Shown in pieces: positions 4,208 through 58,318 of a stretch of 64,000 nucleotides of DNA. The notes beneath the pieces are model-generated. The model was not told the DNA's origin, did not search any database, and saw only the letters and a list, made by a program, of their open reading frames with translations. Within the stretch, counting starts at the first letter, position 1; each line of letters starts with the position of its first letter. The position numbers and the translations under genes were made by a program. Source of the stretch: Desulfatiglandales bacterium (GTDB lineage Bacteria; Desulfobacterota; DSM-4660; Desulfatiglandales; HGW-15); assembly GCA_963667015.2 (NCBI GenBank), contig CAXXJJ010000004.1, positions 588,874 to 652,873 of the forward strand, read 5' to 3'.

Positions 4208-5236
4208 TTAATTTTCAAACAGGTACCCCAGTGTGAACATCAGAGCCGTATCGGTATCCTCCCTGCCTGGTGAAGGGGTTTTTTCCCAGTCCCAGTTATA
4301 CTGAAGGGATGCATTGAAGTGCTTGAATAAAGGGACACGTATTCCGGTCCTGCTTTTAATAAACATATCATCCGAATTCTCCAGGCTCATAAATCCTTCG
4401 TGAAAATGGAATAACTGGAAGGCCTTATCGTAAAAGTACCTGTCCCAGGTAATTGCCCACCTGCCTGATGAATATGAATTGTCCGGTGCTGCAATATAAT
4501 TTTCACTCACATAATTTATACCTGCCTCAAGTGAAAGATTGGTTATTTTGGTTTCATAAAACTGATAACCGGACCCGATACCGATTAAAGACCGCAGACT
4601 CAGGTCTTTGAATCTATCCTTTTCAAAAAGTGCATTACTGTAGGCAAACCATTTTTTTGAAAAAAAGTGATCGTATTTAATATAGCCAAGTGTATTATTC
4701 TCTGTCTTTACTCCTTCGTCTTCTGTTCTGTTCAACTGAACACCCGCGGTATATCTGTTTTTCTCTGTTCTTGCAGAGAATTCACCGTCAATATGTTCAG
4801 TATCTTTTTCCGTATTTCCGCTTGTGTAGGTTAATCCCGCGTTTACCCTGACCTTTATCCTTACAGGAGGCTCTTTAGGCGGATTTATCGATTTAACATC
4901 AGCCATGGAAAAGGATACGGGTTCCTGAACCTTGCTCGTTGTGATTATCATTTTGTCCTGTTCAAAGCCCCGGGGACTGCCTTTTATCAGGCTGTCATCA
5001 CTCAACAGGACCGAAATCTCTTTTTCTGTTTTTATATCAGCTATCTCGGTCCATTTGATTCCGATTTCACCGGCGTAGGAGGTTTTTATAACGAGCTTGC
5101 CGTCCTTCATGGTAATGACTTCACCGGAAATCCTGTCGCCGTTTTTTGTAGTTATTTCATCTGCGTCAAGACTGGAAAAGCTAAAGATATTAATTAGTAA
5201 CAGTGTGATTATAAAACATTTATTAAAGGTTTTCAT
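4208..5236 (-). CDS. DUF481-family outer-membrane beta-barrel protein (YdiY-like)
   Basis: Signal peptide MKTFNKCFIITLLLINIFSFSS. Alternating beta-strand pattern, FSKKWFAYSNALFEKDRFKDLSLR and a C-terminal aromatic end ...GYLFEN. Confidence 0.75.
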   Translation of the reverse strand: MKTFNKCFIITLLLINIFSFSSLDADEITTKNGDRISGEVITMKDGKLVIKTSYAGEIGIKWTEIADIKTEKEISVLLSDDSLIKGSPRGFEQDKMIITTSKVQEPVSFSMADVKSINPPKEPPVRIKVRVNAGLTYTSGNTEKDTEHIDGEFSARTEKNRYTAGVQLNRTEDEGVKTENNTLGYIKYDHFFSKKWFAYSNALFEKDRFKDLSLRSLIGIGSGYQFYETKITNLSLEAGINYVSENYIAAPDNSYSSGRWAITWDRYFYDKAFQLFHFHEGFMSLENSDDMFIKSRTGIRVPLFKHFNASLQYNWDWEKTPSPGREDTDTALMFTLGYLFEN

Positions 5237-5386
5237 AACATGCTCCTTCCGGTTACGGGTTCAGCCCCGACTCAAAATTTAGTGTTAGAATTAGTTTTAA
5301 ACTATATTTTTGAAGATAGAATACTTGCTTGCCAAATGGTTAATTTATACTTGCAGGTCTTTTTCTAGTCAACAGTATTTATGATT

Positions 5387-6346
5387 TCACCCTGTATACA
5401 TGCGGTATCCAATATACAATGAGTAGAAAACAAGGAAAACAGCGCCTTCCCATCTGTCCAGTGAATGTTTTTTTAAGGTAAACATACTCAAAAACAGCAG
5501 AATGCTGGCGGCAATAACCACACCTATATCTATATTACTTGATAATGAAAACGGTATGGGTTTAATTACTGAACTGATACCCAGTACAAAAAGGACATTA
5601 AAGATATTTGATCCAACTACATTACCAACAGCTATATCCGCCTTTTTTTTATATGCTGCGGCAGCAGATGTGGCAAGTTCCGGAAGAGAGGTCCCAATAG
5701 CAACAATAGTCAACCCTATAAGGCCTTCACTCATGCCAAAGGATGAGGCGATTTTTACGGCTCCATCTTTTATCCATACCCCCCCTGCGGTAAGGCAGAC
5801 AAAACCGAGAATCACCATTATTAAGGACCTGAGAAACGAGTATTTGCCGGAAGGCACGTGTTCGGCCATCCCGTCTACATCGGAGGCAATTGAACATGAA
5901 TAGTAAATAAATATGGAAAAGAAAAGTAACAGCAGTAATCCGTCCGATCGTGTCAGAATGTTTTGTGCTTCATTATTTATCAACGACCCGTTAACCATAA
6001 TCCCGAGGGCAAGAATAGCAAGAAGGCTGAATGGAATCTCTTTCCATACAGTACCACTGGTTACCTTAAGAGGAAATATCAGTGATGAAATGCCAAGTAT
6101 CAGGAAAATATTTGAGATATTGCTGCCCAGTACATTACCAATAGCCAGGTCAGTATTTCCATTTATACTTGCAATGACATTGACAAACAGTTCAGGTGTC
6201 GAGGTGCCGAATGCCACGACAGTAAGACCGATAACAAGGTCTGACACATTAAAACGTCTTGCAAGAGATGATGAACCTTCAACAAGGATATCCGCCCCTT
6301 TTATGAGAACTAAAAAACCTGCAGCAAAAAGAATATACACGAGCAT
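5387..6346 (-). CDS. Ca2+/Na+ antiporter (CaCA / YrbG family)
   Basis: Two alpha-repeat motifs (GTSTPELFVN...GNVLGSNISN and GTSLPELATS...GNVVGSNIFN) in a 319-aa polytopic protein. Confidence 0.9.
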   Translation of the reverse strand: MLVYILFAAGFLVLIKGADILVEGSSSLARRFNVSDLVIGLTVVAFGTSTPELFVNVIASINGNTDLAIGNVLGSNISNIFLILGISSLIFPLKVTSGTVWKEIPFSLLAILALGIMVNGSLINNEAQNILTRSDGLLLLLFFSIFIYYSCSIASDVDGMAEHVPSGKYSFLRSLIMVILGFVCLTAGGVWIKDGAVKIASSFGMSEGLIGLTIVAIGTSLPELATSAAAAYKKKADIAVGNVVGSNIFNVLFVLGISSVIKPIPFSLSSNIDIGVVIAASILLFLSMFTLKKHSLDRWEGAVFLVFYSLYIGYRMYTG

Positions 6347-6422
6347 TGACAGAGCCTCAGCGAAAGGATCAATATATCTTCATAACCCTTTAATATTATT
6401 TAATTTATATCTGGATAAAAAT

Positions 6423-6701
6423 CTATTTGATGGTTATTAAACTGTTTAATGTGCCGTGCTCATTATAGACAACATTTTCATTTGCCGGGTCATGCCACCA
6501 TTCGTCACCCACAAGATATTTGTACTCATATGTTCCGGGAGGGATGATAACGGTTTTTGTCCAGACACCGTCTTCATTCTGTTTCATATGGTGTTTTCTG
6601 ATATCCCAGTTGTTAAAGGTGCCCGTAAGACAGACATCCTTTGCCCCCGGCGCTGATAGCGAAAATGTAACCCTTTTCCTTTTTACCCTCTTCTGTACCA
6701 T
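6423..6701 (-). CDS. Stand-alone glycogen-binding (CBM48 / AMPK-beta-like) domain protein
   Basis: VTFSLSAPGAKDVCLTGTFNNWD...DGVWTKTVIIPPGTYEYKYLVGDEWWHDP matches the CBM48 pattern. Confidence 0.8.
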   Translation of the reverse strand: MVQKRVKRKRVTFSLSAPGAKDVCLTGTFNNWDIRKHHMKQNEDGVWTKTVIIPPGTYEYKYLVGDEWWHDPANENVVYNEHGTLNSLITIK

Positions 6702-6853
6702 TTTCTTTTCTCCTGTAATCCGGAAAATTCGGTTATAATCGGATTTATTTCATAATGACATTATGAAATGCTTTCGAGGGATAAATATATCATATTAAGG
6801 GTCTGAATATCCAATAATAAACTTCTACAGGAAGGTAAGATCAACTGTGTAGA

Positions 6854-7789
6854 TCATTGATTTTCAACCTCACAACTTACCCCGTTCTTCAATTCAGGAT
6901 CAAGCTGCCTTAAAAGCGCCCAGGCCTCTTCGGCAGTTTCTACAAATTTAAAAAGATCAAGATCTCCGGGAGAAATAGTCCCCTCTTCCACAAACATCTC
7001 AAAATCAATCAATCTCTTCCAGTATTCAAGCCCAAAGAGCAGAATCGGGATAGGCTTTATTTTTTTAGTCTGAACAAGTGTCAGTGTTTCAAAAAGCTCA
7101 TCCATTGTGCCGAATCCGCCGGGAAAGACTATCAACGCCTTTGCCCGCATGAGAAAATGCATTTTTCTTATGGCAAAATAGTGAAACTGGAAGCAAAGCT
7201 CAGGGGTAATATACTTGTTCGGGTGCTGCTCAAATGGCAGGACAATATTAAGGCCGATACTTTCTGCCCCTGATTCATAGGCACCCCTGTTTGCCGCCTC
7301 CATTATGCCGTGTCCGCCCCCGGTTGTAATGACATAGGCCTTTTTTTCAGCCTTCTGGCAGGATAGGGATATCATTTTGGCAAGTTTTCTTGCCTCTTCA
7401 TAGTAATTACTGTTTTTGACCGCCCTTCTGGCCTTATTGAGTTTTACCAGCAGCTCGCTGTCTTCAGGCTGTTTTTTAAGCTCTTCTTCAACCTTTTCGA
7501 GCTCCTTTAATGCGGTTTCGTTATCCAGGGTCCTTGCGCTTCCAAAAAAAATAATCGTCGATTCTATACCCAGTTCCTGCTGTACCAGTTCAGGTTTAAG
7601 CAGCTCAAGCTGAAGCCTGATGGGTCTTAGATCATCACGAAGTATAAATTTGTCATCCAGATATGAGAGTTTGTAGGATTCGGATCTGGTCTGTGGTGTA
7701 TCAGCGGCCTTTTTTGAGGCCTCTGCCTCTTCATGTGCGTGGGAATAGGGACTTGCATTTTTTTTACCTGAGGGCATATAGTTCTCCAT
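6854..7789 (-). CDS. LOG-family (TIGR00730, lysine-decarboxylase-like) nucleotide phosphoribohydrolase
   Basis: GGGHGIMEAANRG and PGGFGTMDELFE motifs. Confidence 0.85.
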   Translation of the reverse strand: MENYMPSGKKNASPYSHAHEEAEASKKAADTPQTRSESYKLSYLDDKFILRDDLRPIRLQLELLKPELVQQELGIESTIIFFGSARTLDNETALKELEKVEEELKKQPEDSELLVKLNKARRAVKNSNYYEEARKLAKMISLSCQKAEKKAYVITTGGGHGIMEAANRGAYESGAESIGLNIVLPFEQHPNKYITPELCFQFHYFAIRKMHFLMRAKALIVFPGGFGTMDELFETLTLVQTKKIKPIPILLFGLEYWKRLIDFEMFVEEGTISPGDLDLFKFVETAEEAWALLRQLDPELKNGVSCEVENQ

Positions 7790-18746: not shown

Positions 18747-19616
18747 ATGATTAAAAAAGTAATAGCTGTTTTTTCAATAGTCCTGCTGTGCATTTCCATA
18801 AACAGTTGTTCAACAACAAAAGTATGTGACAGGGAATGCCTCAAGGGTTTCATAACCCAGTATCTCGATGCACTTTTAGCCCAGAACCCGGATATCCTGC
18901 CTGTTTCTTCAGATGTAAAATTTACCGAAGACTGTAAGGAATTGAAGATTGGAGAAGGGCTCTGGAAGAGCAAAATCAAACTCACAGATTACAGAAGAGA
19001 TATTATTGATATCAAAGAAGGAACTGCAATATCATTCCTGGTGATCGAAGAAAAAGATACTCCGGTCTTCTTTGTCATGAGACTGAAGGTCCAGGATCAG
19101 AAAATCACTGAAATTGAATCAAGTGTAGTTAGAGGTAAAGAAGAAGGAATGCTTTTTGATCCAAGCAATCTCAAGACAATAAGCAAAGAGATGGCCTATG
19201 TTCCCAAAAAGGAGCAGCTCAATACCCGGGAAGAAATGATCAAGATGGCAATTACATATCCCGAGGGTTTGAAAGTGGGAAGTTTTGTAAAAGTGGATTC
19301 GCCAATGGCAGATGATGCATACAGATATGAAAACGGCCAGCTTATGGCAGGTCCGGGCTGTACCTTCTTTAAGGGCTGCGACAATATGAAGACACAGACG
19401 ATACCTACCCTTGCAGGAATCAAATATAAAGTTCTGGCTGTTGACGAAGAAATGGGTGTTGTTGCCATTCGTATGAATTTTGGCCCTGGTTCTCTCTTTT
19501 CCGGTCAGGGCGAACTTGATGTATGGCATTCATTCAAGATTTACGACGGCCTGATACATTCGGCAGAAGCATATTGTGAAAAAGTCCCACCCGGAACGCC
19601 ATTCGGGTGGGAATAG
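18747..19616 (+). CDS. Exported hypothetical protein (possible lipoprotein)
   Basis: Signal peptide MIKKVIAVFSIVLLCISINSC. GGAGG RBS. No family recognised. Confidence 0.6.
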   Translation: MIKKVIAVFSIVLLCISINSCSTTKVCDRECLKGFITQYLDALLAQNPDILPVSSDVKFTEDCKELKIGEGLWKSKIKLTDYRRDIIDIKEGTAISFLVIEEKDTPVFFVMRLKVQDQKITEIESSVVRGKEEGMLFDPSNLKTISKEMAYVPKKEQLNTREEMIKMAITYPEGLKVGSFVKVDSPMADDAYRYENGQLMAGPGCTFFKGCDNMKTQTIPTLAGIKYKVLAVDEEMGVVAIRMNFGPGSLFSGQGELDVWHSFKIYDGLIHSAEAYCEKVPPGTPFGWE

Positions 19617-19839: not shown

Positions 19840-20634
19840 ATGCCAAAAGACAAAAAACCTGACAAAAATGAAACATCAGAAAAGACGATGAACCGGCGGC
19901 AATTTCTTGTCGGCGGCAGTGCTGCACTTGCTGCAGGGGCAATTGCAGCAACCACCGGTGTAAAATCCGCTGCGGCAGCTGAACCCGAATCCTATCCGGA
20001 ATCAAAGGGCTATCTGGTTTATGACAGCAAAAAATGTATCGGCTGTACAACATGTATGCTGAGCTGCTCCATGGTCCATTATGGAGAGCAAAACCTGTCG
20101 CTCGCCAGAATCCAGATAATGCAGGATTCCTTTGGAAAATTCCCGAACGATCTCCAGATATCACCCTGCAGACAGTGTGTAACACCTCCATGTGTTATAA
20201 ACTGCCCGGTAGGAGCCGCTTATATTGACACCGAAAACGGCAATGTCAGAAGGATTAACGAAGATGATTGTGTCGGTTGTGGAACCTGCCTTAAAATGTG
20301 TCCCCAGCAGCCTCATCGACCTGTATGGAACCATATTACAGGAAAATCCACAAAATGCGACCTTTGCATCGATACCCCTTACTGGGATGAAAAAGGTGGT
20401 CCCGGTGGCAAACAGGCGTGCGTGGAATCATGCCCAATGCAGGCCATCAAGTTTGTTACAGAAACTCCTGACCAGAAAGAGACCGAAGGGTATAATGTCA
20501 ACCTGCGTAATGATCACTGGTTAAATCTTGGCCTGGTTGATGACAGCAGGATAATACCACCAAAAATGAAAAATGCGGGACCGATGATGTTTGGCCCACC
20601 AAAAGCAAAACCAAAACCAAAGGCAAAGGGATAG
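19840..20634 (+). CDS. Tat-signal 4Fe-4S ferredoxin-type subunit (multi-cluster)
   Basis: Twin-arginine motif NRRQFLVGG. Cys motifs CIGCTTCMLSC, CRQCVTPPC, CVGCGTCLKMC and CDLC...C. Lys/Pro-rich C-terminal tail. Confidence 0.85.
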   Translation: MPKDKKPDKNETSEKTMNRRQFLVGGSAALAAGAIAATTGVKSAAAAEPESYPESKGYLVYDSKKCIGCTTCMLSCSMVHYGEQNLSLARIQIMQDSFGKFPNDLQISPCRQCVTPPCVINCPVGAAYIDTENGNVRRINEDDCVGCGTCLKMCPQQPHRPVWNHITGKSTKCDLCIDTPYWDEKGGPGGKQACVESCPMQAIKFVTETPDQKETEGYNVNLRNDHWLNLGLVDDSRIIPPKMKNAGPMMFGPPKAKPKPKAKG

Positions 20635-20644
20635 GAGGATCGAT

Positions 20645-22702
20645 ATGAAAGGCGGATATACAGGTAAAATAGCAAGAGTAAACCTGACTACCAAATCGGT
20701 AAGCACGATTCCAACTGAAAAATACATAGAGTTTGGCGGTGGTCATGGAATAGGATCAGCGATTTTCTTGGATCTGGTAGGGGACCAGCTGCCCTTTGAG
20801 GCATTTGATCCCAGAAATTTAATAATAATGATGACATCCCCGTTTTCAGGAACAAATGTCCCTGCTTCCGGCAGATGCGAAGTTCAGGGCCTTGGTCCGA
20901 TGCTTTATCCTATTGAATGGTTTGGCCACAGCAGCTTTGGCGGACGCTTTACTTCCCAGCTAAAGTTTGCCGGGTGGGACGGCATTGTTGTTGAAGGTGC
21001 TGCAAGCGGACCCGTATGGATAAACATTGTAAATGATAAAATCACAATTGAAGACGGGAAAGACGTCTGGGGAATGGATACCTGGGATACTCAGCAGGAG
21101 ATATCCAGGCGGGTAATCCCCGGTCTCAGGCAGGGTGAATGGGCAGAGGTTGCAGATGATGACTACACTACCCAGATACCGGCTGTAGTATGCTGCGGTG
21201 TTGCAGGAGAAAACAAAAGTCGTCTTGGAGCCCTTCTTCATGGACCGGGATCACAGGCTGCATTATGTGGTTTTGGAGGGGTATTCGGTTCAAAAAATCT
21301 GAAAGCTATAAGCGCAATAGGAACAGGCGGTGTAAAGATTGCTGATCCGCAGGCCTTTATGGATGCGCGTTTGTGGTACAGACAGTTTCAGTGGAACGTA
21401 GACAATCCCCGCGAAGCGAAAAGATTTGAGGCCAGTGGATACAGCCTTATCAGCGGTGCACCCAGCGGAGGAAACGTTACAAATGGAAGACCTCCTCTGG
21501 TCCCGGCAAGGGCGGCTGCCTGTGCGTCATGCCCCAGGGGCTGTCGCATGAGAACGGCTACAGGTGACAGTAATGAATCGGTTTGCGCTGGAACAATGGT
21601 TTTTGGAGGATTCGGAAGAGGAAACGCTGCAGAGTCCCGCAGAAATAACGACCTGATGCAAAAATACGGTTTCGGACACTGGCAGCTTATGCCGACTATG
21701 AGATACCTGACGAGTCTCAAATCAAGAGGCCTTATAGGTCCCGGCAAGCTGATGGAATGTGATCTTCCTCTGGACAAGGAGAATACTCCGGGTTTTGCAA
21801 ATATGCTCATGGATGCCATGGCAAACCGAAAAGGGATCGGTGATGACATGGCCGAAGGTGCTGCAAGATGGGCAAAAAAATATGGTCTACTTGAAGATGA
21901 TATGAGCAAAGGAATACTCCGTTTGAGCTACTATGGGACCCAGGAGCACTATGACTCAACCACACAGGTCGAGTGGGGTTTCGGATCTATCCTCGGTGAA
22001 CGCGACCTTATGCTGCATATGATGTCTAATTATCCGCTTCACTGGATGGCCCAGTCGCGTGACCCCTATCTGACAGCAGAGGAAGCTGCCAAGATTTATA
22101 CAAAGGCAATGGTTCCCTATCATGATTATGACGGTCATGAGTTCATGCTTGACTACGGCGATGGTCCAACCGGAATTTATTCTGACCACAAGGTAAAACA
22201 GGTTGCCTGGGTAAAACATTATGAAAAAATGTGGATAGGCGGCGGAGGATTCTGCGGCTGGAGATGGCCAATGTGTATCACAAACAATACAGCAGACAGA
22301 CACGGGCCCACACCCGAGGCAGAACAGAGATTCTGGAATGCTGTAACTGGAGACAACAAAACCTTTGAAGAATCCATGGAACTGGGTCATAAGATCTATA
22401 CCCTGGACAGGTCAATCTGGGTACTGCAGGGCAGGCACAGGGATACGGAAGTATTTCCGGATTATATTTACGACCAGCCCACCAGAGGAAGTGAGCAGCC
22501 CATGTACCAGAATGGCAAATGGGCCTACGAGACCGGTCAGGGCAGAAAGCTGAGCAGAGAAAAATTTGAAGACTGGAAAACCAGGTTCTATAAATTTGAG
22601 GGTTACAATCCTGAAAATGGATACCCCACAAAGAAAACCCTTAAGAAAATGAATCTCGATAAAGTCGCCACGCTTTTGAAGAAGAAGGATAGACTGGGTT
22701 AG
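20645..22702 (+). CDS. Aldehyde:ferredoxin oxidoreductase (AOR) family tungsto-/molybdopterin enzyme
   Basis: Lies within track ORF 20591..22702. ATG at 20645 follows AGGAGG. N-terminus MKGGYTGKIARVNLTT...FGGGHGIGSAIF and cluster motif CASCPRGC (CxxCxxxC). Confidence 0.85.
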   Translation: MKGGYTGKIARVNLTTKSVSTIPTEKYIEFGGGHGIGSAIFLDLVGDQLPFEAFDPRNLIIMMTSPFSGTNVPASGRCEVQGLGPMLYPIEWFGHSSFGGRFTSQLKFAGWDGIVVEGAASGPVWINIVNDKITIEDGKDVWGMDTWDTQQEISRRVIPGLRQGEWAEVADDDYTTQIPAVVCCGVAGENKSRLGALLHGPGSQAALCGFGGVFGSKNLKAISAIGTGGVKIADPQAFMDARLWYRQFQWNVDNPREAKRFEASGYSLISGAPSGGNVTNGRPPLVPARAAACASCPRGCRMRTATGDSNESVCAGTMVFGGFGRGNAAESRRNNDLMQKYGFGHWQLMPTMRYLTSLKSRGLIGPGKLMECDLPLDKENTPGFANMLMDAMANRKGIGDDMAEGAARWAKKYGLLEDDMSKGILRLSYYGTQEHYDSTTQVEWGFGSILGERDLMLHMMSNYPLHWMAQSRDPYLTAEEAAKIYTKAMVPYHDYDGHEFMLDYGDGPTGIYSDHKVKQVAWVKHYEKMWIGGGGFCGWRWPMCITNNTADRHGPTPEAEQRFWNAVTGDNKTFEESMELGHKIYTLDRSIWVLQGRHRDTEVFPDYIYDQPTRGSEQPMYQNGKWAYETGQGRKLSREKFEDWKTRFYKFEGYNPENGYPTKKTLKKMNLDKVATLLKKKDRLG

Positions 22703-22770: not shown

Positions 22771-22938
22771 CTATGAAAGATATAACTAATTTAATATTTT
22801 TAACCTTATCCGGGTTGAAGATGTCAAATTTCACCAATATTTTTATTATGATCCAGGCATACATTTTTCACACAGTTATCCAACCTTGTATGTGTCTAAT
22901 TTTAAAAATCAATCTAAAATCGATTCAGGAGGCTTAAC

Positions 22939-24672
22939 ATGAAAAGGATATTTACATCAGCTAAATTCCTGCTTTTACTTGCTGCGTCTATCCTTGTGTG
23001 CAGTGCAGCTCAGGGCAGTGAAAAAATTACGGTAATGAATCCGGCAATCGCAAATCCCATGGTGGACCGGGTAGCATTGACAAAACGTCTCGACACACTT
23101 GATAACAAAACCCTTTATCTCGTGGATATCAACTGGGGCGGCCCTGATGCGGCCTACGGTGTTTTCAAGGAAATGGAAATATGGTTTTCTGAAAATATGC
23201 CCAAGGTAAATGTTGTACTAAAGAGAAAAAACGGCAGCTACATGTCTGATGACCCGGCATTATGGAAAGAGATCGGTGAAAAAGGAGATGCCGCAGTTAT
23301 CGGAATATCTGGTTGAGACAGCTGTACCTCGGCCGTGAGCCGATTCTGTAAAACACTGGAAACAACCTATAATATACCTACTGTAGGCGGAGCAGCAGCC
23401 AATATCATGAGTTATGCTGTTGGATATAATATCACAAATGTAACCGGCATGCCTGTCCGTTTTGTCGGATTTCCTTTTCCTGTTGCAGGCCAGCCTCAGA
23501 AAGTCCACAGGCAATATGTAAGGGGAAATGATATGTTGAGCGGTAAACCAATGATGCAGACCATCATTGAAGGCCTTACAAAACCACGGACGGAAGAAGA
23601 AAAATACTCAGGTCCTGCTCCGGCCCCGACTCCGGAACCCAGATTTTTACCCCCGGATACAGAAGAAAACCTTCGTCGTCTTTTCAAGGAGAAGGACTGG
23701 ACCGACTATAATCCAATAATTCTTCCTACTGAAGATAAAGTAAAAGCCATGCTTGAAGGCACAAGTCACGAAGCAGATGAAGTGCTTGTAACCCTTAACT
23801 GGCCTGGAGGAGAAAGAAAATTTACCGTGGAAAAAGCAGCAATCTGTGCTGTTATGGCAGGTGCAAAACCTGAATACTTCCCGCTTATTCTGGCACTTGG
23901 GACGCAGGTAGGAAATTTTGGCAATTCCACCAGTTCAATGGCAAATATAATACTGGTCAATGGACCGATACGCAATGAACTGGGGATGAATTACAAGGGA
24001 AATGCCATGGGCCCCCATAATGAGGTCAACTCCGTTGTGGGCCGTGTCTTCACCCTTATGGCAAAGACAGCCGGCAATATTCATCATGGAGTAACTACTT
24101 TCAGCACACTGGGAAGCAACCTTCAATACAACAATCTCTGCATAGCAGAAAATGAAGAGGCCCTTCCGGAAGGCTGGAAACCCTACCATGTGAGTATGAG
24201 GTTTAAACCCAATGACAGCACGATCACGGTAGGCAGGGGTTGGACCTATATTTCAAGTGTAGGTGAAGCACAGAAGGCTTATCCTCCACACTTCCTCATG
24301 CGTGATTATATGAGATCTCTGGGAGCATTCGGTGGTGCATCCGTAATAATGGACCCGACAGTTGCAAAACTGCTTAAGGATAATTATGAAATGAAAACAA
24401 AAGAAGATCTCAGTAAATGGCTTGCAGAGAATATTGAAAAAACAGTTGATTCATTCTGGGGTAACGGTGTTGCAGCCACAGGAATGCTGCCGATGGCCAG
24501 ACAGGGCCTGCCTCCATATGCAGATTACCTGAATATGCCGGGAGATACGCTGATAAAGCCCTTTAACGCCCGCAGCATCAATATATTAGCTGTTGGCGGT
24601 GAGATTCAGACAACATGGTTTGTTACCGATTTCGGTCTTGGCAGGCCGGTTTCGGTTGATGAGTGGAGATAG
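22939..24672 (+). CDS. Predicted exported selenoprotein (577 aa) with in-frame UGA at 23314-23316 (Sec126) in a G-U-D-S-C motif. N-terminal GrdB/UGSC-like redox domain fused to an uncharacterised ~440-aa domain
   Basis: Track ORFs 22939..23316 and 23335..24672 share one frame and are separated only by TGA plus 6 sense codons. The second ORF has only a GTG with no SD. Reads ...GDAAVIGISG-U-DSCTSAVSRFCKTLE.... Sec-type signal peptide MKRIFTSAKFLLLLAASILVCSAAQG. A hairpin follows the TGA. Confidence 0.65.
23317..23349 (+). promoter_or_regulatory. Candidate bacterial SECIS-like hairpin
   Basis: Inner stem UCGGC/GCCGA (23329-23333 with 23339-23343) and apical loop CGUGA (23334-23338), which begins 17 nt after the UGA. 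A possible outer stem ACAG/CUGU (23318-23321 with 23346-23349). Short by comparison with fdhF-type SECIS elements. Confidence 0.4.
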
Positions 24673-24860: not shown

Positions 24861-25280
24861 ATGAAAAAAATAGTTTTATTAATTTTAATGGTTATTTTTA
24901 CTTTTCCGGCACCCGGCAAAGCAGCTGAAGTGGCTCAGATCAAACCCCATGAGTTAAAGCAGCTAATTGATAAAAAAAGTAAATTTATACTTATAGATTC
25001 AAGGGACAGCGGGAAGTATAGCCAGGGGCATATTGAAGGAGCTGTAAATATCCATTTTGATCCTTCAGGAGACCCCAATGCCCGTCAAATGATTCTGATG
25101 GCCCTGCCTATTGATAATCTTATAATTATTTACGGTGATGCCGAAGATGAGAAAGCAGCTGAAGGTCTTGCACTTGAGCTATATGATATGGGCTGTGACA
25201 TGGATAGTCTGAAGATTTTATCCGGAGGCATAGCTCAGTGGAAAAAGCAGGGATTCACTCTTATAACTGCCGGCAATTAA
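24861..25280 (+). CDS. Exported rhodanese-homology-domain protein lacking the active-site Cys
   Basis: Signal peptide MKKIVLLILMVIFTFPAPGKA. Rhodanese pattern ILIDSRDSGKYSQGHIEGAVNI. The active-site loop position reads IIIYGDAEDEKAA, where Cys is expected after the beta-strand. Confidence 0.75.
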   Translation: MKKIVLLILMVIFTFPAPGKAAEVAQIKPHELKQLIDKKSKFILIDSRDSGKYSQGHIEGAVNIHFDPSGDPNARQMILMALPIDNLIIIYGDAEDEKAAEGLALELYDMGCDMDSLKILSGGIAQWKKQGFTLITAGN

Positions 25281-46034: not shown

Positions 46035-47492
46035 ATGAATTTATCAGGACTTTCAGGAGGACAGTATAAACCCTTATCACCCGACCAGGTTGAGAAACTG
46101 CACGGAGCAGCGCTCTCTATCCTTGAAAAGACAGGAATGACATTTGAACCGGGATTGGAAGATGTGGCAGAATTACTTGGTTTAAACGGCGCAACCCTGG
46201 ATATGGAGAAGAGGATTATCAGGTTTTCTTCTGAAATGATTGCTGAAGCAGTTTCAAAGGCTCCGGAACAGGTTGTTTTGTATGGCCGGAAGGAAGAAAA
46301 TGACCTCTATTTAGCAAAAGATAAAGTTCATTTGGGAACCGGAGGCGCTGCAATAAAAATACTGGATCTGGACACCGGGGAAATTCGTCCCACAACACTG
46401 GCAGACCTTAAAATGGTTACACAACTGGTAGACAAACTGGAAAATATTCATTTTCTGGTAAGGCCATGTATTCCAACTGATATTGATAAGGCGGATTACG
46501 ATATCAACATGTATTATGCATGTCTTTCCGCAACAGCAAAGCATGTGATGTCAGGCGTCAATGATGAAAAAGGCCTGGCAGATGTAATCAGCATGGCGTC
46601 AATGATTGCCGGCGGAAAGGAAAAGCTCAAGGCAAAACCTTTTATATCAGTGATAACATCCTTTGCGATCAGTCCATTAAAATTATGCACACAATCCACC
46701 CGGATAATGCGTGAGGCAGTCAAAGAAGAGATTCCGGTTGCACTCTCCTGTGCGCCAATGGCAGGGTCTACATCACCCTTAACCATGGCTGGAACCCTGG
46801 CTCAGCTGCATGCCGAACAGCTTGCAGGAGTGGCAATCTGTCAGTTCACCAATCCGGGAGCCCCAATACTTTATGGCGGCATACCCGGAATGGCAAACCT
46901 CAAGACAATGGGATACCTGGGAGGAGCAGTGGAATGCGGAATGATGAACGCCGCTGTTCATCAGTTGGCAGATCATGTAAAGATACCCAATTACAACTCT
47001 GCGGGTTTAACCGACTCCAAGGTATCCGATGGCCAGGCCGCCTATGAGAAGACATTTACAACACTGCTTGCCGCAATGGGTGGATCAAACTATACTCACC
47101 ATGCAGCAGGCATGCTGGAATCCATGCTGACTATTGCACATGAACAGTTCGTTATAGATGACGAGATCATAGGAAATGCCTGCAAGGTATTAAAAGGTAT
47201 CAATTGCGACGAAGAACACCTGGCGCTTGATGTTATTGAAGAAGTCGGAGCAGGCGGTAATTTCATGATGTCCGCCCATACCATGGAGCATCTGTATGAT
47301 GAATATTATCAGGGAAACGGTGTGACCGACCAGAAAGCCCGATCCGGATGGGAAAAGGACGGAAGCCTGGACATCAAAGAGCGGGCACGGAAGATCGCGA
47401 AATCAATTCTGGATAAACCTTCAGAGAGTTATATTCCGGAGGATATTGACAAAGAAATCAGGCAGAAGTTTAAGATTCTTCTGAATCGATAA
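46035..47492 (+). CDS. MttB-superfamily methyltransferase, non-pyrrolysine type (quaternary amine:corrinoid methyltransferase candidate)
   Basis: N-terminus ...PLSPDQVEKLHGAALSILEKTGM typical of MttB-family proteins. Uninterrupted 485-aa ORF with no in-frame TAG. Confidence 0.8.
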   Translation: MNLSGLSGGQYKPLSPDQVEKLHGAALSILEKTGMTFEPGLEDVAELLGLNGATLDMEKRIIRFSSEMIAEAVSKAPEQVVLYGRKEENDLYLAKDKVHLGTGGAAIKILDLDTGEIRPTTLADLKMVTQLVDKLENIHFLVRPCIPTDIDKADYDINMYYACLSATAKHVMSGVNDEKGLADVISMASMIAGGKEKLKAKPFISVITSFAISPLKLCTQSTRIMREAVKEEIPVALSCAPMAGSTSPLTMAGTLAQLHAEQLAGVAICQFTNPGAPILYGGIPGMANLKTMGYLGGAVECGMMNAAVHQLADHVKIPNYNSAGLTDSKVSDGQAAYEKTFTTLLAAMGGSNYTHHAAGMLESMLTIAHEQFVIDDEIIGNACKVLKGINCDEEHLALDVIEEVGAGGNFMMSAHTMEHLYDEYYQGNGVTDQKARSGWEKDGSLDIKERARKIAKSILDKPSESYIPEDIDKEIRQKFKILLNR

Positions 47493-54510: not shown

Positions 54511-57500
54511 CTATTTTATTTTCTCTACTTTATGTGAAGATACTGCTTCACCCTGTTTATATAATTTGTCAAACTTATTAGTATTGATGGTTGTTTTTTT
54601 ATAAGCGTTATCCATAAGCTCTCTGGAATCAAATATATCCAGATAGATCTCGGCAAATTTACCCAGTAAGGGTAATATGTATGTTCCTGTTCTGAATAAT
54701 AATCCTTCAGGATTTTCGTTTGCTTTTACTTCAAGCTTATCAAAACATCCCCGGATAAAATTTGCCAGATCAGGAGCAAATCCTTCCACATGGGTCTGGG
54801 CGCCTTTAAGGGCCTTTATCCAGTTTGTTACCGGCATATATACCTTTTTCCCATCTGCTCCAATCCAGTCCATATGGTATCCTATAAGCTCCTGTGAGCT
54901 GATATTCCCGAATATTCCTGAACCACCTCCGCCACCACCTCCTTCACTCTCGCCTCCATTATTATCTCCATTATCACCTCCATTATTAGGAGGTGGCTCA
55001 CAATCGGTTAATCTGGTCAGGGTAGGATCCCCCAGGATAATTCTGGGGGCGTAATAATAATCCCATAAATCCAATTCTAGTGAATTAAAAAGATAAAACA
55101 GAGGAACATTAATATGAGTCTTAAATGATTGCCCGAAGTTTTTACCTGAATCTAAAGCCGCAGCAATATTATGCCCATAAAATCCCTCAACATTGCTGGG
55201 CATATTACAGGTAACTATATATGTTGAACCCTGTGCAACGACAACCATGCTGGTTGGGCTGTAAAGAATGGATGTTAAGAAGTTATCAACATAATCCAGG
55301 TTCCCTACAGAGCAGCCAGTAGTTGTAAAAAAGGCAGTTTTCACAGGATTATTTTCAACCCATGAAATATCAATTTGCCCGTTTGATGAAGGTGTTCCAT
55401 GTGTATGGGTATTTGTAAAATCAGACAGGCCTGCGGATAAGTCAGCGTAACCCTGCGCAACGGTCAATCCTTGCGAAGGGCTTTCAAAGTATATTCGTGC
55501 GGAAGGAGCATTACTGAAGGGTGTCCAGGCATTGTCTCCATCCTCTAATTCATAAAGGAGATCATTGTGCTCTTCAACTGTTGCTGCTGTGTAAATTTCA
55601 CTGATATGCAAAAAGGCCTCTGGTAAGGTATAGTTGCAGGTGCGGTACTCATGGTTTTTTTTAAAATACCGCTTTAGGGCGCTTACAGTATCAGTAAGAT
55701 TGTCTTTGTAATATGGCAGTACACCCACCCAGATCTCCCATTCCAGATTTCCGCTATGGATATCAAATGAATAATCCTTTCCGCCCGGTGATACATATCC
55801 AGCCGATGTTTCGAATATGCCATCCAGGTCACTATAATATTGATAGCTTATCACTTCATATTCTTCAGGGTTAGAACCAGGGGTTATGTACCATTGATAT
55901 GCATAAGGTATATTTCCTATTAAAATTGCACCTTCGAGCTCTTCATCTGTCTGCACATACAATTCCTGTAGATACTCTCTGATTTCTGGTGGAGTTATAT
56001 TGCTGACCACTTTTTCAATGACTGTATACCCTTCATTGGTTAGATCTGTTTTAAATTGGCTGAGCTCTGAATTGATCTGTGCAGATAACATGGCATCTAT
56101 AATCAAGGCTACAGTGCCATTTGGAGGATTGTTTAACCGGTTGGCGTTAACAGTCAGAAGTTCCAGATTGGTAAGGTTATCCAGTTCAGGAGGTATATTA
56201 CCAGTCAATTGGTTGTTGTGCAGGAAGAGGGATTTCAGGTTTACCAGATTTCCCAGCTCTGAAGGGATAGTGCCTGTTAACTGGTTGTCGGACAGGTCAA
56301 GCGCAGTCAGGTTTATCAGATCTCCCAGTTTTGAAGGGATAGTACCTGTCAACTGATTATCGGACAGACTGAGTTCTTCCAGATTTAGCATATTTTCAAT
56401 AAATGAAGGGATAGTGCCTGTTAATTGATTATTAGACAGGTTAAAAATATTCAGGTTTATCAGATTACCCAGGTCTGAAGGGATTGCTCCTGTTAATTGA
56501 TTGTTGTACAGGTCAAGCACAGTCAGGTTTATCAGATTTCCAAATACCGATGGAATAGGGCCTGTGAGTTCATTATAAGCCAGATCAAGCCGTGTAAGGT
56601 TGGTCAGATTACCAATTTCCAGGGGTAAAGTCCCAATCAGTTTATTGAAGGATAACGATAGCTTCTCAAGGTTTGTCAGGTTACCCAGTTCTGCAGGTAT
56701 GGGGCCTGTTAGTTCATTGCCCATCAAAATCAGGCTCTCAAGGTTAGTCAGGTTGCCCAGTTCTGCAGGTATAGTACCTGTGAGTTCATTACTGTACAGG
56801 GATAAATCCTGAAGATTAGTCAGGTTACCCAGTTGTGCAGGTATAGTACCGGTGAGTTGGTTACCAGACAAGTAAAGGACTTCAAGGTTATCCAGAGCCT
56901 CCAGCTCATGAGGTATGGTGCCTGTTAACTGGTTGTAGGCTATGCTAAGAGATCTAAGATTAAGCAGGTCACACAGCTCCAGGGGTATTGTCCCTGTGAG
57001 ATTGTTAAATGTTAAATCGAGCGATTGAAGATTGATCATATTACCAATTTCCGGAGGTATAGGACCGCTGAGTTCATTGCCCATCAAAATCAGGCTCTCA
57101 AGATTAGCCAGATTGCCCAGTTCAGGAGGTATTGAACCGGTGAGTTGATTATAATCTAAACTAAGCATTTTTAGGTTTTGAAGAGCCTCCAGCTCAGGGG
57201 GTATTGTACCTGTGAGTTCATTGACGCTCAGAAACAGGGTCTTAAGATTAGTCAAATTTCCCAGTTCAGGGGGTATTGTACCTGTGAGTTCATTGCTACT
57301 CAGAGCCAGGGTCTCAAGATTAGTCAGGTTACCCAGTTCTGCAGGTATAGTGCCTGTAAGTTCACTACCAAACAGGTATAGGTCTTTAAGATTTATCATA
57401 TTGCCCAGTTCAGGAGGTATAGTACCGGTAAGTTGATTAGGACCTAAAGCAAGCTTTGTGAGGTTTTGAAGAGCCCCCAGTTCAGGGGGTATTGTACCTG

Positions 57501-57888
57501 TGAGTTCATTGCCCATCAGAGACAGGTTCTCAAGATTAGTCAAATTGCCCAGTTCAGGAGGTATAGTACCGGTTAGATTGTTTTGCAAAAGATCAATATC
57601 ATAGACACTGTCATCTGTTACAGTTATACCAAACCATGTATTTTCAGTGCCGGGCACTGCAAATCCATCCGCATCAACAGGTGCAGCCTTCCAGCCTGAA
57701 TTATCGGTCCAGCCGTCTCCGTTTGTGCTGTTATAAAGCGCTATAAGAGCGGCTCTTTCGGACGCAGGTATTGCACCATAAGCAGCAGAATGGATTGATA
57801 ACGCAATCAGAATGATAAATATCATGGATTTAAATTGTTTAATACCAAAGAGACCCGGTGTAGATGATGCATACTTGGAACAGTTCAT
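54511..57888 (-). CDS. Secreted 1125-aa protein: N-terminal cap, 20 plant-type 24-residue LRRs, clan-CD (gingipain/C25-like) peptidase-like domain, Gly-rich linker and an unknown ~140-aa C-terminal domain
   Basis: AGGAG RBS 8 nt before ATG at 57888. Hydrophobic signal MIFIILIALSIHSAAYG. Repeats follow LxxLxLxxNxLTGTIPxELGNLxN. Candidate His (HTHG, codon 55399-55401) and Cys (TTGCSVG, codon 55312-55314) lie 29 residues apart. Confidence 0.85.
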   Translation of the reverse strand: MNCSKYASSTPGLFGIKQFKSMIFIILIALSIHSAAYGAIPASERAALIALYNSTNGDGWTDNSGWKAAPVDADGFAVPGTENTWFGITVTDDSVYDIDLLQNNLTGTIPPELGNLTNLENLSLMGNELTGTIPPELGALQNLTKLALGPNQLTGTIPPELGNMINLKDLYLFGSELTGTIPAELGNLTNLETLALSSNELTGTIPPELGNLTNLKTLFLSVNELTGTIPPELEALQNLKMLSLDYNQLTGSIPPELGNLANLESLILMGNELSGPIPPEIGNMINLQSLDLTFNNLTGTIPLELCDLLNLRSLSIAYNQLTGTIPHELEALDNLEVLYLSGNQLTGTIPAQLGNLTNLQDLSLYSNELTGTIPAELGNLTNLESLILMGNELTGPIPAELGNLTNLEKLSLSFNKLIGTLPLEIGNLTNLTRLDLAYNELTGPIPSVFGNLINLTVLDLYNNQLTGAIPSDLGNLINLNIFNLSNNQLTGTIPSFIENMLNLEELSLSDNQLTGTIPSKLGDLINLTALDLSDNQLTGTIPSELGNLVNLKSLFLHNNQLTGNIPPELDNLTNLELLTVNANRLNNPPNGTVALIIDAMLSAQINSELSQFKTDLTNEGYTVIEKVVSNITPPEIREYLQELYVQTDEELEGAILIGNIPYAYQWYITPGSNPEEYEVISYQYYSDLDGIFETSAGYVSPGGKDYSFDIHSGNLEWEIWVGVLPYYKDNLTDTVSALKRYFKKNHEYRTCNYTLPEAFLHISEIYTAATVEEHNDLLYELEDGDNAWTPFSNAPSARIYFESPSQGLTVAQGYADLSAGLSDFTNTHTHGTPSSNGQIDISWVENNPVKTAFFTTTGCSVGNLDYVDNFLTSILYSPTSMVVVAQGSTYIVTCNMPSNVEGFYGHNIAAALDSGKNFGQSFKTHINVPLFYLFNSLELDLWDYYYAPRIILGDPTLTRLTDCEPPPNNGGDNGDNNGGESEGGGGGGGSGIFGNISSQELIGYHMDWIGADGKKVYMPVTNWIKALKGAQTHVEGFAPDLANFIRGCFDKLEVKANENPEGLLFRTGTYILPLLGKFAEIYLDIFDSRELMDNAYKKTTINTNKFDKLYKQGEAVSSHKVEKIK
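56130..57600 (-). repeat. Tandem 72-bp coding repeats (LRR units) inside the LRR gene
   Basis: Recurrent blocks such as ggtattgtacctgtgagttcattg and cccagttcaggaggtat at 72-nt spacing. Confidence 0.85.
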
Positions 57889-58318
57889 ATCTCAATCTCC
57901 TCTATTAAAGTAATTCATGTAACATCTTTGCTCATCAATCTATTAACAAAAGGCTATCAGGTTAAAAAAAGGCTCAACCTTATAACGTGCTACTATTCAA
58001 AAATGCTTAGAAAACACTATCTGAAGAATATGAAAGGCCTTCATTATAAATCTTGTTGTATCAGGGGCCGGAATTTACTGTAACTTTAATGCAGAACACT
58101 GTATGTGTAAACATCATAAAATTAACAGATTATTTACAGTAAAAAACTGCATTTGATATTTAGTAATAACTGAAGTAAAAACAGATGTCCTGTGATTGTT
58201 TTCTTATGGTCCAATGGTAACATCGCCTTTGGACGCTCTGCGTCCCTTGTTAAATGTTAATGGAAAAGCCTCTTACCTAGATCATCTTTTAGAATTTTCT
58301 ATCAAGTAAGAAGAAGCG

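Follow-up and report, generated by a model that had tools for sequence, protein, structure and literature searches.

The window, that is, the whole stretch of 64,000 nucleotides that was analysed, carries on its plus strand two adjacent open reading frames, 22939..23316 and 23335..24672, which begin 396 nt apart and share an identical frame. The TGA at 23314-23316 is the sole stop between them, and it is followed by six sense codons (GAC AGC TGT ACC TCG GCC, encoding D S C T S A) before the GTG at which the second frame is annotated to start. Read across the TGA, the junction passes from KGDAAVIGISG through the TGA codon into DSCTSAVSRFCKTLETTYNIPTVGG. The first frame is preceded by a Shine-Dalgarno sequence, AGGAGG, and a purine-rich sequence of this kind was looked for 5' of the GTG and not found; the GTG itself (23335-23337) is a valine codon lying inside a conserved hairpin loop. 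These features, apart from the place of the GTG in the loop, were part of the basis on which the first-pass annotation had proposed that the two frames form a single selenoprotein gene, and all of them were confirmed in the sequence. The features of the locus are collected in Table 1.

Table 1. Features of the 22939-24672 locus and its neighbours, with positions numbered along the window.
Feature	Position	Strand	Basis
NrfC-like 4x[4Fe-4S] protein with twin-arginine signal (MNRRQFLVGG...)	19840..20634	+	conserved upstream neighbour, nine Desulfobacterota loci
AFOR-family tungsto/molybdopterin oxidoreductase	20645..22702	+	conserved upstream neighbour
Shine-Dalgarno sequence AGGAGG, 6 nt 5' of the ATG	22927..22932	+	direct sequence reading
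Proposed single coding sequence, 577 codons plus TAG stop, with UGA126 as selenocysteine	22939..24672	+	same frame, one TGA; homology
Predicted Sec-type signal peptide, about 24-26 residues, MKRIFTSAKFLLLLAASILVCSAAQG, then conserved mature start SEKITVMNP	22939..23016	+	heuristic rules
UGSC domain, residues 32-195, predicted flavodoxin-like alternating beta-alpha, carrying U-x-x-C	23032..23523	+	PF24696; model
In-frame UGA, putative selenocysteine codon 126 (G-I-S-G-U-D-S-C)	23314..23316	+	column conservation; Cys in P0022 and in CxxC long forms
Possible extended SECIS, lower stem ACAG (23318-21)/CUGU (23346-49)	23318..23349	+	MFE fold, total -7.7 kcal/mol; tentative
Cys129, probable resolving Cys of U-x-x-C	23323..23325	+	kept in all family copies but one (Ser in L024)
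Candidate SECIS core hairpin, stem UCGGC/GCCGA, apical loop CGUGA at 23334-23338	23329..23343	+	synonymous constraint, covariation, bSECIS rules
C-terminal domain, approximately residues 236-577	23644..24669	+	no Pfam, NCBIfam or PDB relative
Cys303 (VEKAAICAVMAG), clade-specific, in core family motif	23845..23847	+	89% conserved in selenocysteine clade
Cys401 (NNLCIAENEE), clade-specific, in core family motif	24139..24141	+	91% conserved in selenocysteine clade
Exported rhodanese-like protein, active-site loop without Cys or selenocysteine	24861..25280	+	downstream neighbour, six loci

Genes of the clade that carries the TGA, here called the selenocysteine (Sec) clade, occur widely in Desulfobacterota and Acidobacteriota, and a locus may hold as many as three copies. 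They fall into three paralog subfamilies, which in Acidobacteria adjoin ECF-sigma/FecR genes and in Desulfobacterota a Tat-exported NrfC-like/AFOR module; the NrfC-like/AFOR association is absent from the Acidobacteria loci. A Desulfobacterota-like origin of the window is supported as well. The rhodanese-like protein encoded downstream is related to a rhodanese (seleno)protein family. Elsewhere in the window no other TGA-interrupted gene was found to be credible, and a candidate pair at 50234 on the minus strand consists of two genes, each with its own ATG. A search of the 64-kb window for tRNA genes returned none, and an apparent CRISPR array at 57 kb is the coding pattern of a 24-residue leucine-rich repeat.

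That the two frames encode one polypeptide, as had been supposed, is borne out by comparison with relatives. The Pfam UGSC domain, PF24696, runs across the TGA and scores 34.2 bits, above its gathering cutoff of 25, and it is matched by 27 of 27 diverse relatives. The homolog P0022 (585 aa) is uninterrupted and 63% identical from end to end, with GISGCDSC at the junction, and uninterrupted single-chain homologs of approximately 550 aa number in the thousands. The codons between the TGA and the annotated GTG are conserved among relatives at the protein level as D[SG]C[TS]SA. In essentially all the relatives found, and in every public record examined, the gene has been cut at the conserved UGA to give hypothetical proteins of about 125 aa and 419-447 aa, with inconsistent downstream starts and gaps of 18-126 nt.

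The TGA occupies the same alignment column in all 39 orthologous instances and in 54 of 61 family copies from 40 loci in genomes of Acidobacteriota, Desulfobacterota and Gammaproteobacteria. The 54 copies take in two paralog subfamilies, in which the motif reads U-S-Q-C or U-S-V-C, and U-D-G-C is a further variant among relatives. All of the best 120 N-terminal matches end at this column. A metagenome scan was made with the site degenerate as TGH, such that TGA, TGC or TGT was permitted, and TGA was present in 119 of 120 matches; 118 of these are family members, every one of them with TGA, and no Cys form (TGC or TGT) was found among the 118. A recurrence on this scale far exceeds chance. Such retention, when one base change would give Cys, argues that Cys could not take the place of the encoded residue. 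Only one Cys-form member, P0022, was found in the close clade. Of 120 long forms sampled at greater distance, 102 carry CxxC there, as do P0245, P0246, P0251, P0264, P0288 and P0371. A UGA conserved at a single alignment column and a Sec/Cys pair in homologs, both of them criteria for a selenoprotein, are found together, and single-polypeptide homologs with Cys at position 126 do exist. The TGA very probably encodes Sec within U-D-S-C, as the first-pass annotation had it. The same annotation described the geometry as that of a classic redox centre with a further cysteine. The U-x-x-C portion of that description holds; the further cysteine does not, as C137 alternates between C, A and S in relatives, which rules out a UxxCx7C site with a conserved third Cys. 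Many distant family members have no Cys whatsoever at the site, so that the UGSC domain is not redox-active in every case.

The short hairpin downstream of the TGA had been put forward as a selenocysteine insertion element (SECIS) with a weak stem, and its conservation is consistent with this role. Its arms, at 23329-33 and 23339-43, enclose a loop that begins 17 nt from the UGA. At codons +5 to +8 the entropy of synonymous codons drops to 0-0.07, the lowest stretch of the gene, whose mean is 0.815. The positions of the hairpin are paired in 88.9% of alignment cells, compared with 20-35% in slid controls, and compensatory changes occur: pair 15-31 is found as GC, AU or UA, and pair 18-28 switches from GC to CG. 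Over 119 unique sequences, pairing reaches 99-100% at 19-27 and 20-26, and the GC-to-CG swaps at 18-28 are independent. In the paralog subfamilies the hairpins differ but their spacing does not, and every loop contains G(U).

The constraints published for bacterial SECIS (bSECIS) elements are an apical loop of 3-9 nt with G in one of its first two positions, an upper stem of 4-16 bp, a UGA-to-loop distance of 16-37 nt and an MFE of -7.5 kcal/mol or lower (PMC13188914, Fig. 2). The window hairpin falls within all of these, with a loop of 5 nt in which G is second and followed by U, a stem of 5 bp and a spacing of 17 nt. Its MFE of -7.7 kcal/mol (nt 4-45 after the UGA) passes the energy limit narrowly and is thermodynamically marginal, in keeping with the weak stem noted earlier; 98% of the 119 relatives lie at or below -7.5 kcal/mol. 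The wider region around the hairpin folds no better than shuffled sequence (z=0.02), and Rfam, searched at the gathering threshold and at E<=10 on the local region, gave no match to a SECIS family; its weak matches, to s2m and others, are noise. A competing hairpin between nt 5-11 and 17-23 can form in 71 of the 119 sequences. It was rejected as the SECIS, showing no compensatory change, and the substitution G18C covaries with C28, the proposed partner, and not with U10. A lower stem of fixed register was likewise set aside, with 36-63% pairing and a register that differs across lineages.

The N-terminus has K2 and R3, a 12-residue hydrophobic core with the stretch FLLLLAASILV, then SAAQG and the conserved start SEKITVMNP. 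By a simple rule of hydrophobicity and charge, this amounts to a basic n-region, an h-region and small residues near the cleavage site, as are seen in Sec-type signal peptides. With the same heuristic, 96 of 98 members of the Sec clade have signal-peptide-like N-termini, compared with 6 of 120 CxxC long forms, which agrees with the signal peptide called in the first pass. The protein is thus predicted to be exported, unlike its mostly cytoplasmic CxxC relatives. The products of neighbouring genes carry Tat, lipoprotein-like and Sec-type signals.

An AlphaFold model of P0022 made with a deeper alignment is confident (pLDDT 89.7), and supersedes an earlier model from a low-diversity alignment (pLDDT 69) that gave an uninformative fold search. 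In the confident model the UGSC domain is formed of five parallel beta-alpha units, and the site is flanked by a strand (129-135) and a helix (138-153), midway within a single alpha/beta domain. When this model was compared with the PDB by Foldseek, the best matches were lumazine synthase-type and other flavodoxin-like folds, with TM scores of 0.59 or less on the target, and no thioredoxin-fold match was returned. The redox domain is therefore predicted to be flavodoxin-like and not thioredoxin-like. The remainder of the protein had been described as a domain of about 440 residues that could not be assigned. No relative was found for it: the C-terminal domain has no match at E<=1 in Pfam or NCBIfam, a profile sequence search of the PDB was negative, and Foldseek on the confident model found nothing beyond the N-domain. 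Its size, in contrast, has to be revised to approximately 340 residues, with the redox domain reaching approximately residue 195. The family alignment of the C-terminal domain shows the motifs WTD..P(I/V)..PTE, VEK..NAVMAG, VNGPIR, GR and ENEE..P.GW.

A UGSC-containing selenoprotein was known previously (NF041046, for example Hyphomonas neptunium ABI76733.1), as described by Zhang & Gladyshev 2007/2008 (PMC1976440, PMC2398784). It resembles the present protein in its homologous PF24696 domain, in Sec as the first residue of U-x-x-C, in having Cys homologs and in being functionally uncharacterised. Members of NF041046 are single-domain proteins of about 150 aa with U-G-S-C, whereas the window protein has 577 residues, two domains, U-D-S-C and a predicted signal peptide. 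The read-through protein scores 22.1 bits against the NF041046 equivalog cutoff of 125, and the long forms also lie under this cutoff (P0022 37.3 bits, others 37-64 bits). The link to the UGSC family drawn in the first pass therefore stands as a relationship, through the Pfam domain, but not as membership of NF041046. For the fold, a thioredoxin-like structure was proposed in 2008 (PMC2398784), whereas the present model is flavodoxin-like.

Closer in architecture are the long-form CxxC proteins of Proteobacteria that are annotated as 'UGSC-like domain-containing' (Ramlibacter, Bradyrhizobium, Xanthobacteraceae), which share both domains and the motifs of the C-domain at 30-43% full-length identity. 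They differ in having Cys in place of Sec (consensus GHCSTCAPAV), in mostly lacking a signal peptide and in mostly having Asn at the position of Cys303. A few long-form CxxC records are named 'UGSC family (seleno)protein'. From the GOS metagenome, PMC2398784 reports a 'UGSC/Unknown_1 fusion' selenoprotein (Fig. S1A), a UGSC domain joined to a conserved domain of uncharacterised function, which may share the present architecture; the motifs of the window protein were absent from the portion of that paper's sequence dataset that was searched.

A resemblance to the GrdB-type reductases, also suggested in the first pass, did not hold up. GrdB, GrdF and PrdB (PF07355) do share a U-x-x-C selenocysteine motif, but differ from the window protein in size, context and cellular location. 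PF07355 had no match at E<=1 in the window protein or the 27 diverse relatives, and the one weak match, to the GrdF model, has E=0.1 and 11 bits against a cutoff of 800. That match would presumably place U126 near the Sec position of GrdB. The exported DsbA-like, DsbG-like and thiol:disulfide interchange selenoproteins likewise have UxxC and are predicted to act in the cell envelope (PMC13188914). These are, however, proteins of the thioredoxin fold, whereas the window protein is predicted to have another fold and has a large extra domain.

Taken together, these observations make it highly probable (approximately 0.9) that 22939-24672 is one gene for an exported, 577-residue selenocysteine protein of the UGSC-domain superfamily. 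The annotation as it stands would instead have two real genes, a 125-aa protein ending at the TGA and a 445-aa protein starting at the GTG, perhaps associating as a split protein. Gene callers draw the boundary there in essentially all public records, and elsewhere in the window TGA acts as an ordinary stop, closing 10 of 37 long open frames. Yet the GTG has no Shine-Dalgarno sequence and is the Val codon of a conserved loop, the downstream start varies among relatives, the inter-ORF codons are conserved, neither the Pfam domain nor the alpha/beta domain of the prediction is broken at the TGA, and the Cys-form homologs are single chains, all of which leaves two genes very improbable. Read-through without Sec, either by near-cognate insertion of Trp or Cys stimulated by the hairpin or through an alternative sense codon, would fit the small hairpin and the lack of an Rfam SECIS match. 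It is nevertheless hardly credible, given that the aligned residue in uninterrupted homologs is the Cys of CxxC, the classic partner of Sec, that the hairpins of both the window and the paralog subfamilies obey the bSECIS spacing and loop rules, and that the 118 metagenome sequences all hold to TGA one base away from Cys. Moreover, other long frames of the window do end at TGA, and the relatives belong to Desulfobacterota and Acidobacteriota, which are not TGA-reassigned lineages. A pseudogene, or a sequencing error in a Cys-encoding gene, is usually signalled by just such a single in-frame stop, and a few long-read relatives (L008, L040) do contain frameshifts; this explanation is effectively refuted by the recurrence of this TGA in over 150 independent sequences, which come from different phyla and assemblies, by strong purifying selection on both halves and by the selected RNA structure downstream.

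The single-gene reading also admits another chemistry, in which a metal or cofactor is bound by U126 and C129, possibly together with C303 and C401, or these residues hold a persulfide or selenium species. The two extra cysteines of the Sec clade lie in the most conserved motifs of the C-domain, the neighbours include metal-pterin, Fe-S and rhodanese-like proteins, the redox domain is predicted not to be a thioredoxin fold, and Cys is missing from the site in many family members. Against this, a UxxC or CxxC placed at a helix N-terminus is the usual arrangement in dithiol oxidoreductases, and the Pfam and NCBIfam searches matched no known metal-binding family, so that such chemistry is considered unlikely.

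The product is probably a selenol/thiol oxidoreductase. Translation would start at the ATG behind the AGGAGG, and the hairpin, acting as a bacterial SECIS, would recruit SelB with Sec-tRNA(Sec), whereby UGA126 is decoded as Sec. The 577-aa preprotein would then be directed to the periplasm by Sec-type export, and the mature protein would present U126-x-x-C129, flanked in the UGSC domain by a beta-strand and a helix N-terminus, alongside the C-domain of about 340 aa with C303 and C401. Sec126 may attack the substrate or a C-domain disulfide, after which Cys129 would resolve the selenenylsulfide, and substrate specificity would be supplied by the C-domain. In Desulfobacterota the protein may cooperate with the adjacent Tat-exported NrfC-like/AFOR module. 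Because the C-domain has no characterised relative, both the substrate and this cooperation are conjecture. A bolder and rather doubtful proposal is that the exported, obligately Sec-containing long forms of UGSC constitute a distinct class of periplasmic selenoenzyme, with a catalytic C-domain and with Sec126/Cys129 feeding a site formed by Cys303/Cys401. If so, the protein would shuttle electrons, or sulfur or selenium, and would represent a new redox activity of the envelope rather than a generic thiol-disulfide exchanger.

The family represents no new principle but a branch, so far mis-annotated, of a selenoprotein kind already known, and the understanding of how selenoproteins work is unchanged. 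The C-terminal domain recurs in thousands of uncharacterised proteins and merits structural and biochemical study. As these genes are split in every public record examined, the selenoproteomes of Desulfobacterota and Acidobacteriota, abundant phyla of soils and sediments, are under-counted, and NCBI's current UGSC model would miss such genes. The cytoplasmic cousins of the Sec clade manage with CxxC, and the persistence of Sec throughout the 118 sampled sequences argues for a catalytic need for selenium in the exported protein.

The open reading frames 22939..23316 and 23335..24672 lie in the same frame, and when the region was read and translated the TGA at 23314-23316 was the sole stop between them, in agreement with the first-pass annotation, which had proposed a single exported selenoprotein. 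The codons between this TGA and the annotated GTG start are all sense (D-S-C-T-S-A), the junction reads ...AAVIGISG-TGA-DSCTSAVSRFC..., and an AGGAGG sequence (22927-22932) precedes the ATG, with nothing resembling a ribosome-binding site upstream of the GTG. Elsewhere in the window TGA acts as a normal stop, ending 10 of the 37 open frames of at least 250 codons, and read-through at this position therefore requires a dedicated mechanism. With Cys substituted at codon 126 for domain searches of the read-through protein, residues 32-195 score 34.2 bits (cutoff 25) with the Pfam UGSC domain PF24696, a match that spans the TGA uninterrupted; searched alone for domain families, neither half of the split gene gave a match.

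Nearly all of the 2597 homologs have been called as proteins of ~420-447 aa that cover the downstream part alone, and with the N-terminal part as query the best 120 matches are ~125-aa fragments, all stopping at one column. The single-polypeptide homolog that was sought is P0022, a 585-aa protein that aligns end-to-end at 63% identity and has the junction GISG-C-DSC. An exhaustive search with P0022 returned 3247 clusters, including many uninterrupted ~550-aa relatives at 30-43% identity. When these are aligned, several place the first Cys of a CxxC at the Sec position and others have a residue other than Cys there. CxxC occupies this column in 102 of a further 120 long forms, with the consensus GHCSTCAPAV. 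Two genes, as the calls would have it, non-Sec read-through or a pseudogene are together very improbable alternatives to a selenoprotein gene, given a domain and a homolog that both cross the junction and the constancy of the TGA itself.

For that constancy, five contigs reached via homologs and 36 genome loci (Acidobacteriota, Desulfatiglans, Desulfobacteraceae and Gammaproteobacteria MAGs) were sampled, and TGA occupies the Sec column in 39 of 39 matched instances. When all family copies in the sampled loci are counted, TGA followed by xxC is found in 54 of 61; the other seven are truncated, carry frameshifts or have variant motifs such as U-D-G-S. The copies form three paralog subfamilies with the motifs U-D-[SG]-C (to which the window's gene belongs), U-S-Q-C and U-S-V-C, and in Acidobacteria they are often adjacent. 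Nine Acidobacterial loci hold two to three copies each (U-D-G-C, U-S-Q-C, U-S-V-C), every copy being TGA-interrupted and having its own downstream hairpin. A metagenome scan that accepted any of TGA, TGC and TGT at the Sec codon, with no constraint on the hairpin, found TGA in 119 of 120 matches (118 are family members and the lone TGT match is unrelated), which argues that Sec is effectively obligatory in this clade. The gene is a single open reading frame with a conserved UGA, a Sec/Cys pair and a UGSC domain. The sole close-clade Cys form found is on the P0022 contig (JGI sample 3300075153), where P0022 adjoins another uninterrupted UGSC paralog of the long form (574 aa) and a gene resembling that of cytochrome c554. 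In its organism, Sec seems to have been replaced by Cys in both paralogs, as expected of a non-Sec user.

The hairpin UCGGC/CGUGA/GCCGA that had been proposed as a SECIS is present at 23329-23343, its loop beginning 17 nt past the UGA. Across 37 orthologs aligned by codon, the relative entropy of synonymous codons has a mean of 0.815; codons +5 to +8 (TCG GCC GTG AGC) fall to 0.07, 0, 0 and 0.07, and the lowest windows gene-wide begin at codons +3 to +5; this drop, precisely over the hairpin, points to selection at the RNA level. The structure is also conserved in orthologs, as the proposal demanded, with 88.9% of cells paired in 33 distinct sequences against 20-35% in controls with a shifted 3' arm. 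Among these sequences pair 15-31 (positions counted from the UGA) is GC, AU or UA and pair 18-28 changes from GC to CG, with GU wobbles too. Across 119 unique sequences, pair 20-26 is formed in 118 and pair 19-27 in all, the loop CGUGA occurs in 105, and pair 18-28 is GC in 114 and CG in three, the swaps including one Acidobacteria-type and one Desulfobacterota-type sequence. The U-S-Q-C and U-S-V-C paralogs have their own hairpins despite different downstream amino acids; their loops open with G(U), 17-21 nt past the UGA, and the U-S-Q-C group displays GC-to-AU compensation.

The minimal SECIS of E. coli fdhF is reportedly a minihelix of 17 nt separated from the UGA by 11 nt, the same spacing as that of the window's 17-nt element (nt 15-31). 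The window's hairpin is thermodynamically marginal (-7.7 kcal/mol when a short lower stem is included), and energies at or below -7.5 are found for 98% of relatives; the wider region around the hairpin folds no better than shuffles, and a search of Rfam found no family matching it. With a loop of 5 nt whose second position is a G followed by U, an upper stem of 5 bp and a spacing of 17 nt, the hairpin agrees with the published constraints on bacterial SECIS elements (PMC13188914). The annotated GTG start is a Val codon inside the SECIS loop, which is why gene callers pick it and why starts vary in relatives.

A competing hairpin, pairing nt 5-11 with 17-23, is possible in 71 of the 119 sequences; its pairing is perfect in many relatives from Acidobacteria, for about half of which it is also the MFE structure. 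No compensatory changes in it were found among the 119 sequences, and in the G18C variants C28, not U10, changes in step, so selection acts on the proposed hairpin. The alternative may be incidental or a competing conformer.

A signal-peptide-like N-terminus, which the first-pass annotation had also recognised, recurs in the clade: a basic start and hydrophobic core precede the conserved SEKITVMNP in 96 of 98 members, compared with signal-like N-termini in 6 of 120 CxxC long forms, which argues that the Sec clade is the predicted exported branch of a mostly cytoplasmic family. A first structure model was poor; with a deeper alignment, P0022 was modelled at pLDDT 89.7 and pTM 0.87. The N-domain of this model consists of five beta-alpha units, in which the Sec/Cys follows strand 129-135 and lies at the N-terminal end of helix 138-153. 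In a Foldseek search of the PDB with the model, the N-domain alone was matched; the matches have flavodoxin-like folds, lumazine synthase among them (TM at most 0.59 on target), and include no thioredoxin. The C-domain (~340 C-terminal residues) has no match in the PDB by fold or profile, and no Pfam or NCBIfam model covers it in this protein or 27 diverse relatives. Cys303 (VEKAAICAVMAG) and Cys401 (NNLCIAENEE) are each ~90% conserved in the window-type clade and lie in the two strongest family motifs; the Cys303 position is mostly Asn in cytoplasmic CxxC forms. The further Cys noted earlier, C137, proved variable, being C, A or S among relatives.

SelB-dependent insertion of Sec at codon 126 and export by the Sec translocon would deliver a protein in which Sec126 attacks and Cys129 resolves, and this selenol/thiol redox cycle would serve the uncharacterised C-domain. 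The main mechanistic rival, in which the Sec and Cys residues serve as metal ligands or as carriers of sulfur or selenium, is unlikely.

The gene follows an NrfC-like Fe-S protein and an AFOR-family pterin enzyme in nine Desulfobacterota loci, that of the window and eight more (two of them Desulfobacteraceae); this pair suggests a Tat-exported periplasmic AFOR complex and recalls E. coli YdhX/YdhV. The best NCBIfam match of the rhodanese-like protein is 'rhodanese-related (seleno)protein' (38.5 bits, below cutoff); its active-site loop, IIIYGDAEDEK, is without Cys or Sec, and it may be a non-catalytic binding module. Acidobacterial paralog clusters adjoin ECF-sigma and FecR-like anti-sigma genes instead. 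None of the neighbours in the loci compared accompanies the gene from one phylum to another, and a functional link between the selenoprotein and any of them is therefore conjectural.

Features of the window and of related loci
Feature	Location	Strand	Remarks
DUF8021-family protein	window 18747-19616	+	lipoprotein-like signal ...SINSC; upstream of Fer4/AFOR pair, kept in 7 related loci
NrfC-like 4x[4Fe-4S] protein and AFOR-family tungsto/molybdopterin enzyme	window 19840-22702	+	twin-arginine signal MNRRQFLVGG... on the former, directly upstream of the latter
Alternative hairpin ACAGCUG / CGGCCGU	window 23318-23336 (nt 5-23 after UGA)		mutually exclusive with SECIS stem
Rhodanese-like protein	window 24861-25280	+	predicted exported; often downstream neighbour
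PYLIS_3 (mttB pyrrolysine insertion sequence)	window 47007-47106, in ORF 46035-47492	+	Rfam, 62.9 bits
Paralog locus	L002 9666-11429	-	Acidobacterial; TGA-interrupted copy
Paralog locus	L004 12674-14404	-	Acidobacterial; TGA-interrupted copy
Further paralog loci	L007, L008, L014, L016, L019, L028, L040		Acidobacterial
Motif variant	L024 ~5175-6911		U-D-G-S, without resolving Cys
Motif variant	L039 ~6001-7764		U-W-G-C

PYLIS_3 is the sole Rfam gathering-level match in the window. The ORF that contains it encodes an uninterrupted 485-aa MttB-like protein with no in-frame TAG, probably a non-Pyl MttB-superfamily methyltransferase, and the match probably reflects coding-sequence homology. The window also holds a ~2.9-kb tandem duplication (~58300-60000 and ~61200-62900, copies 84-90% identical) and, at ~56590-57600, a 72-nt periodic repeat of at least nine units, similar throughout the unit and coding on the minus strand for the 24-residue leucine-rich-repeat pattern ..L.G.IP.ELG.L..L; a CRISPR array was rejected.

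The UGSC-containing proteins were recognised as a selenoprotein family in 2007-2008 (PMC1976440, PMC2398784), and a 2026 catalogue still lists them solely as the short NF041046 form. The suggested likeness to this NCBI 'UGSC family (seleno)protein' stands for the shared domain and fails for the NF041046 cutoff, motif and architecture, so the protein is related to that family without belonging to it. A 'UGSC/Unknown_1 fusion', known from a mention in 2008, may be the same architecture, and a few uninterrupted long forms are publicly named 'UGSC family (seleno)protein' already; the protein is therefore a variant within the UGSC kind. What appears to be new is a long-form UGSC clade that is predicted to be exported, obligately Sec-containing and systematically mis-annotated. 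For the specialist this is useful rather than surprising, the most interesting aspects being the uncharacterised C-domain and a possible new periplasmic selenoenzyme activity.
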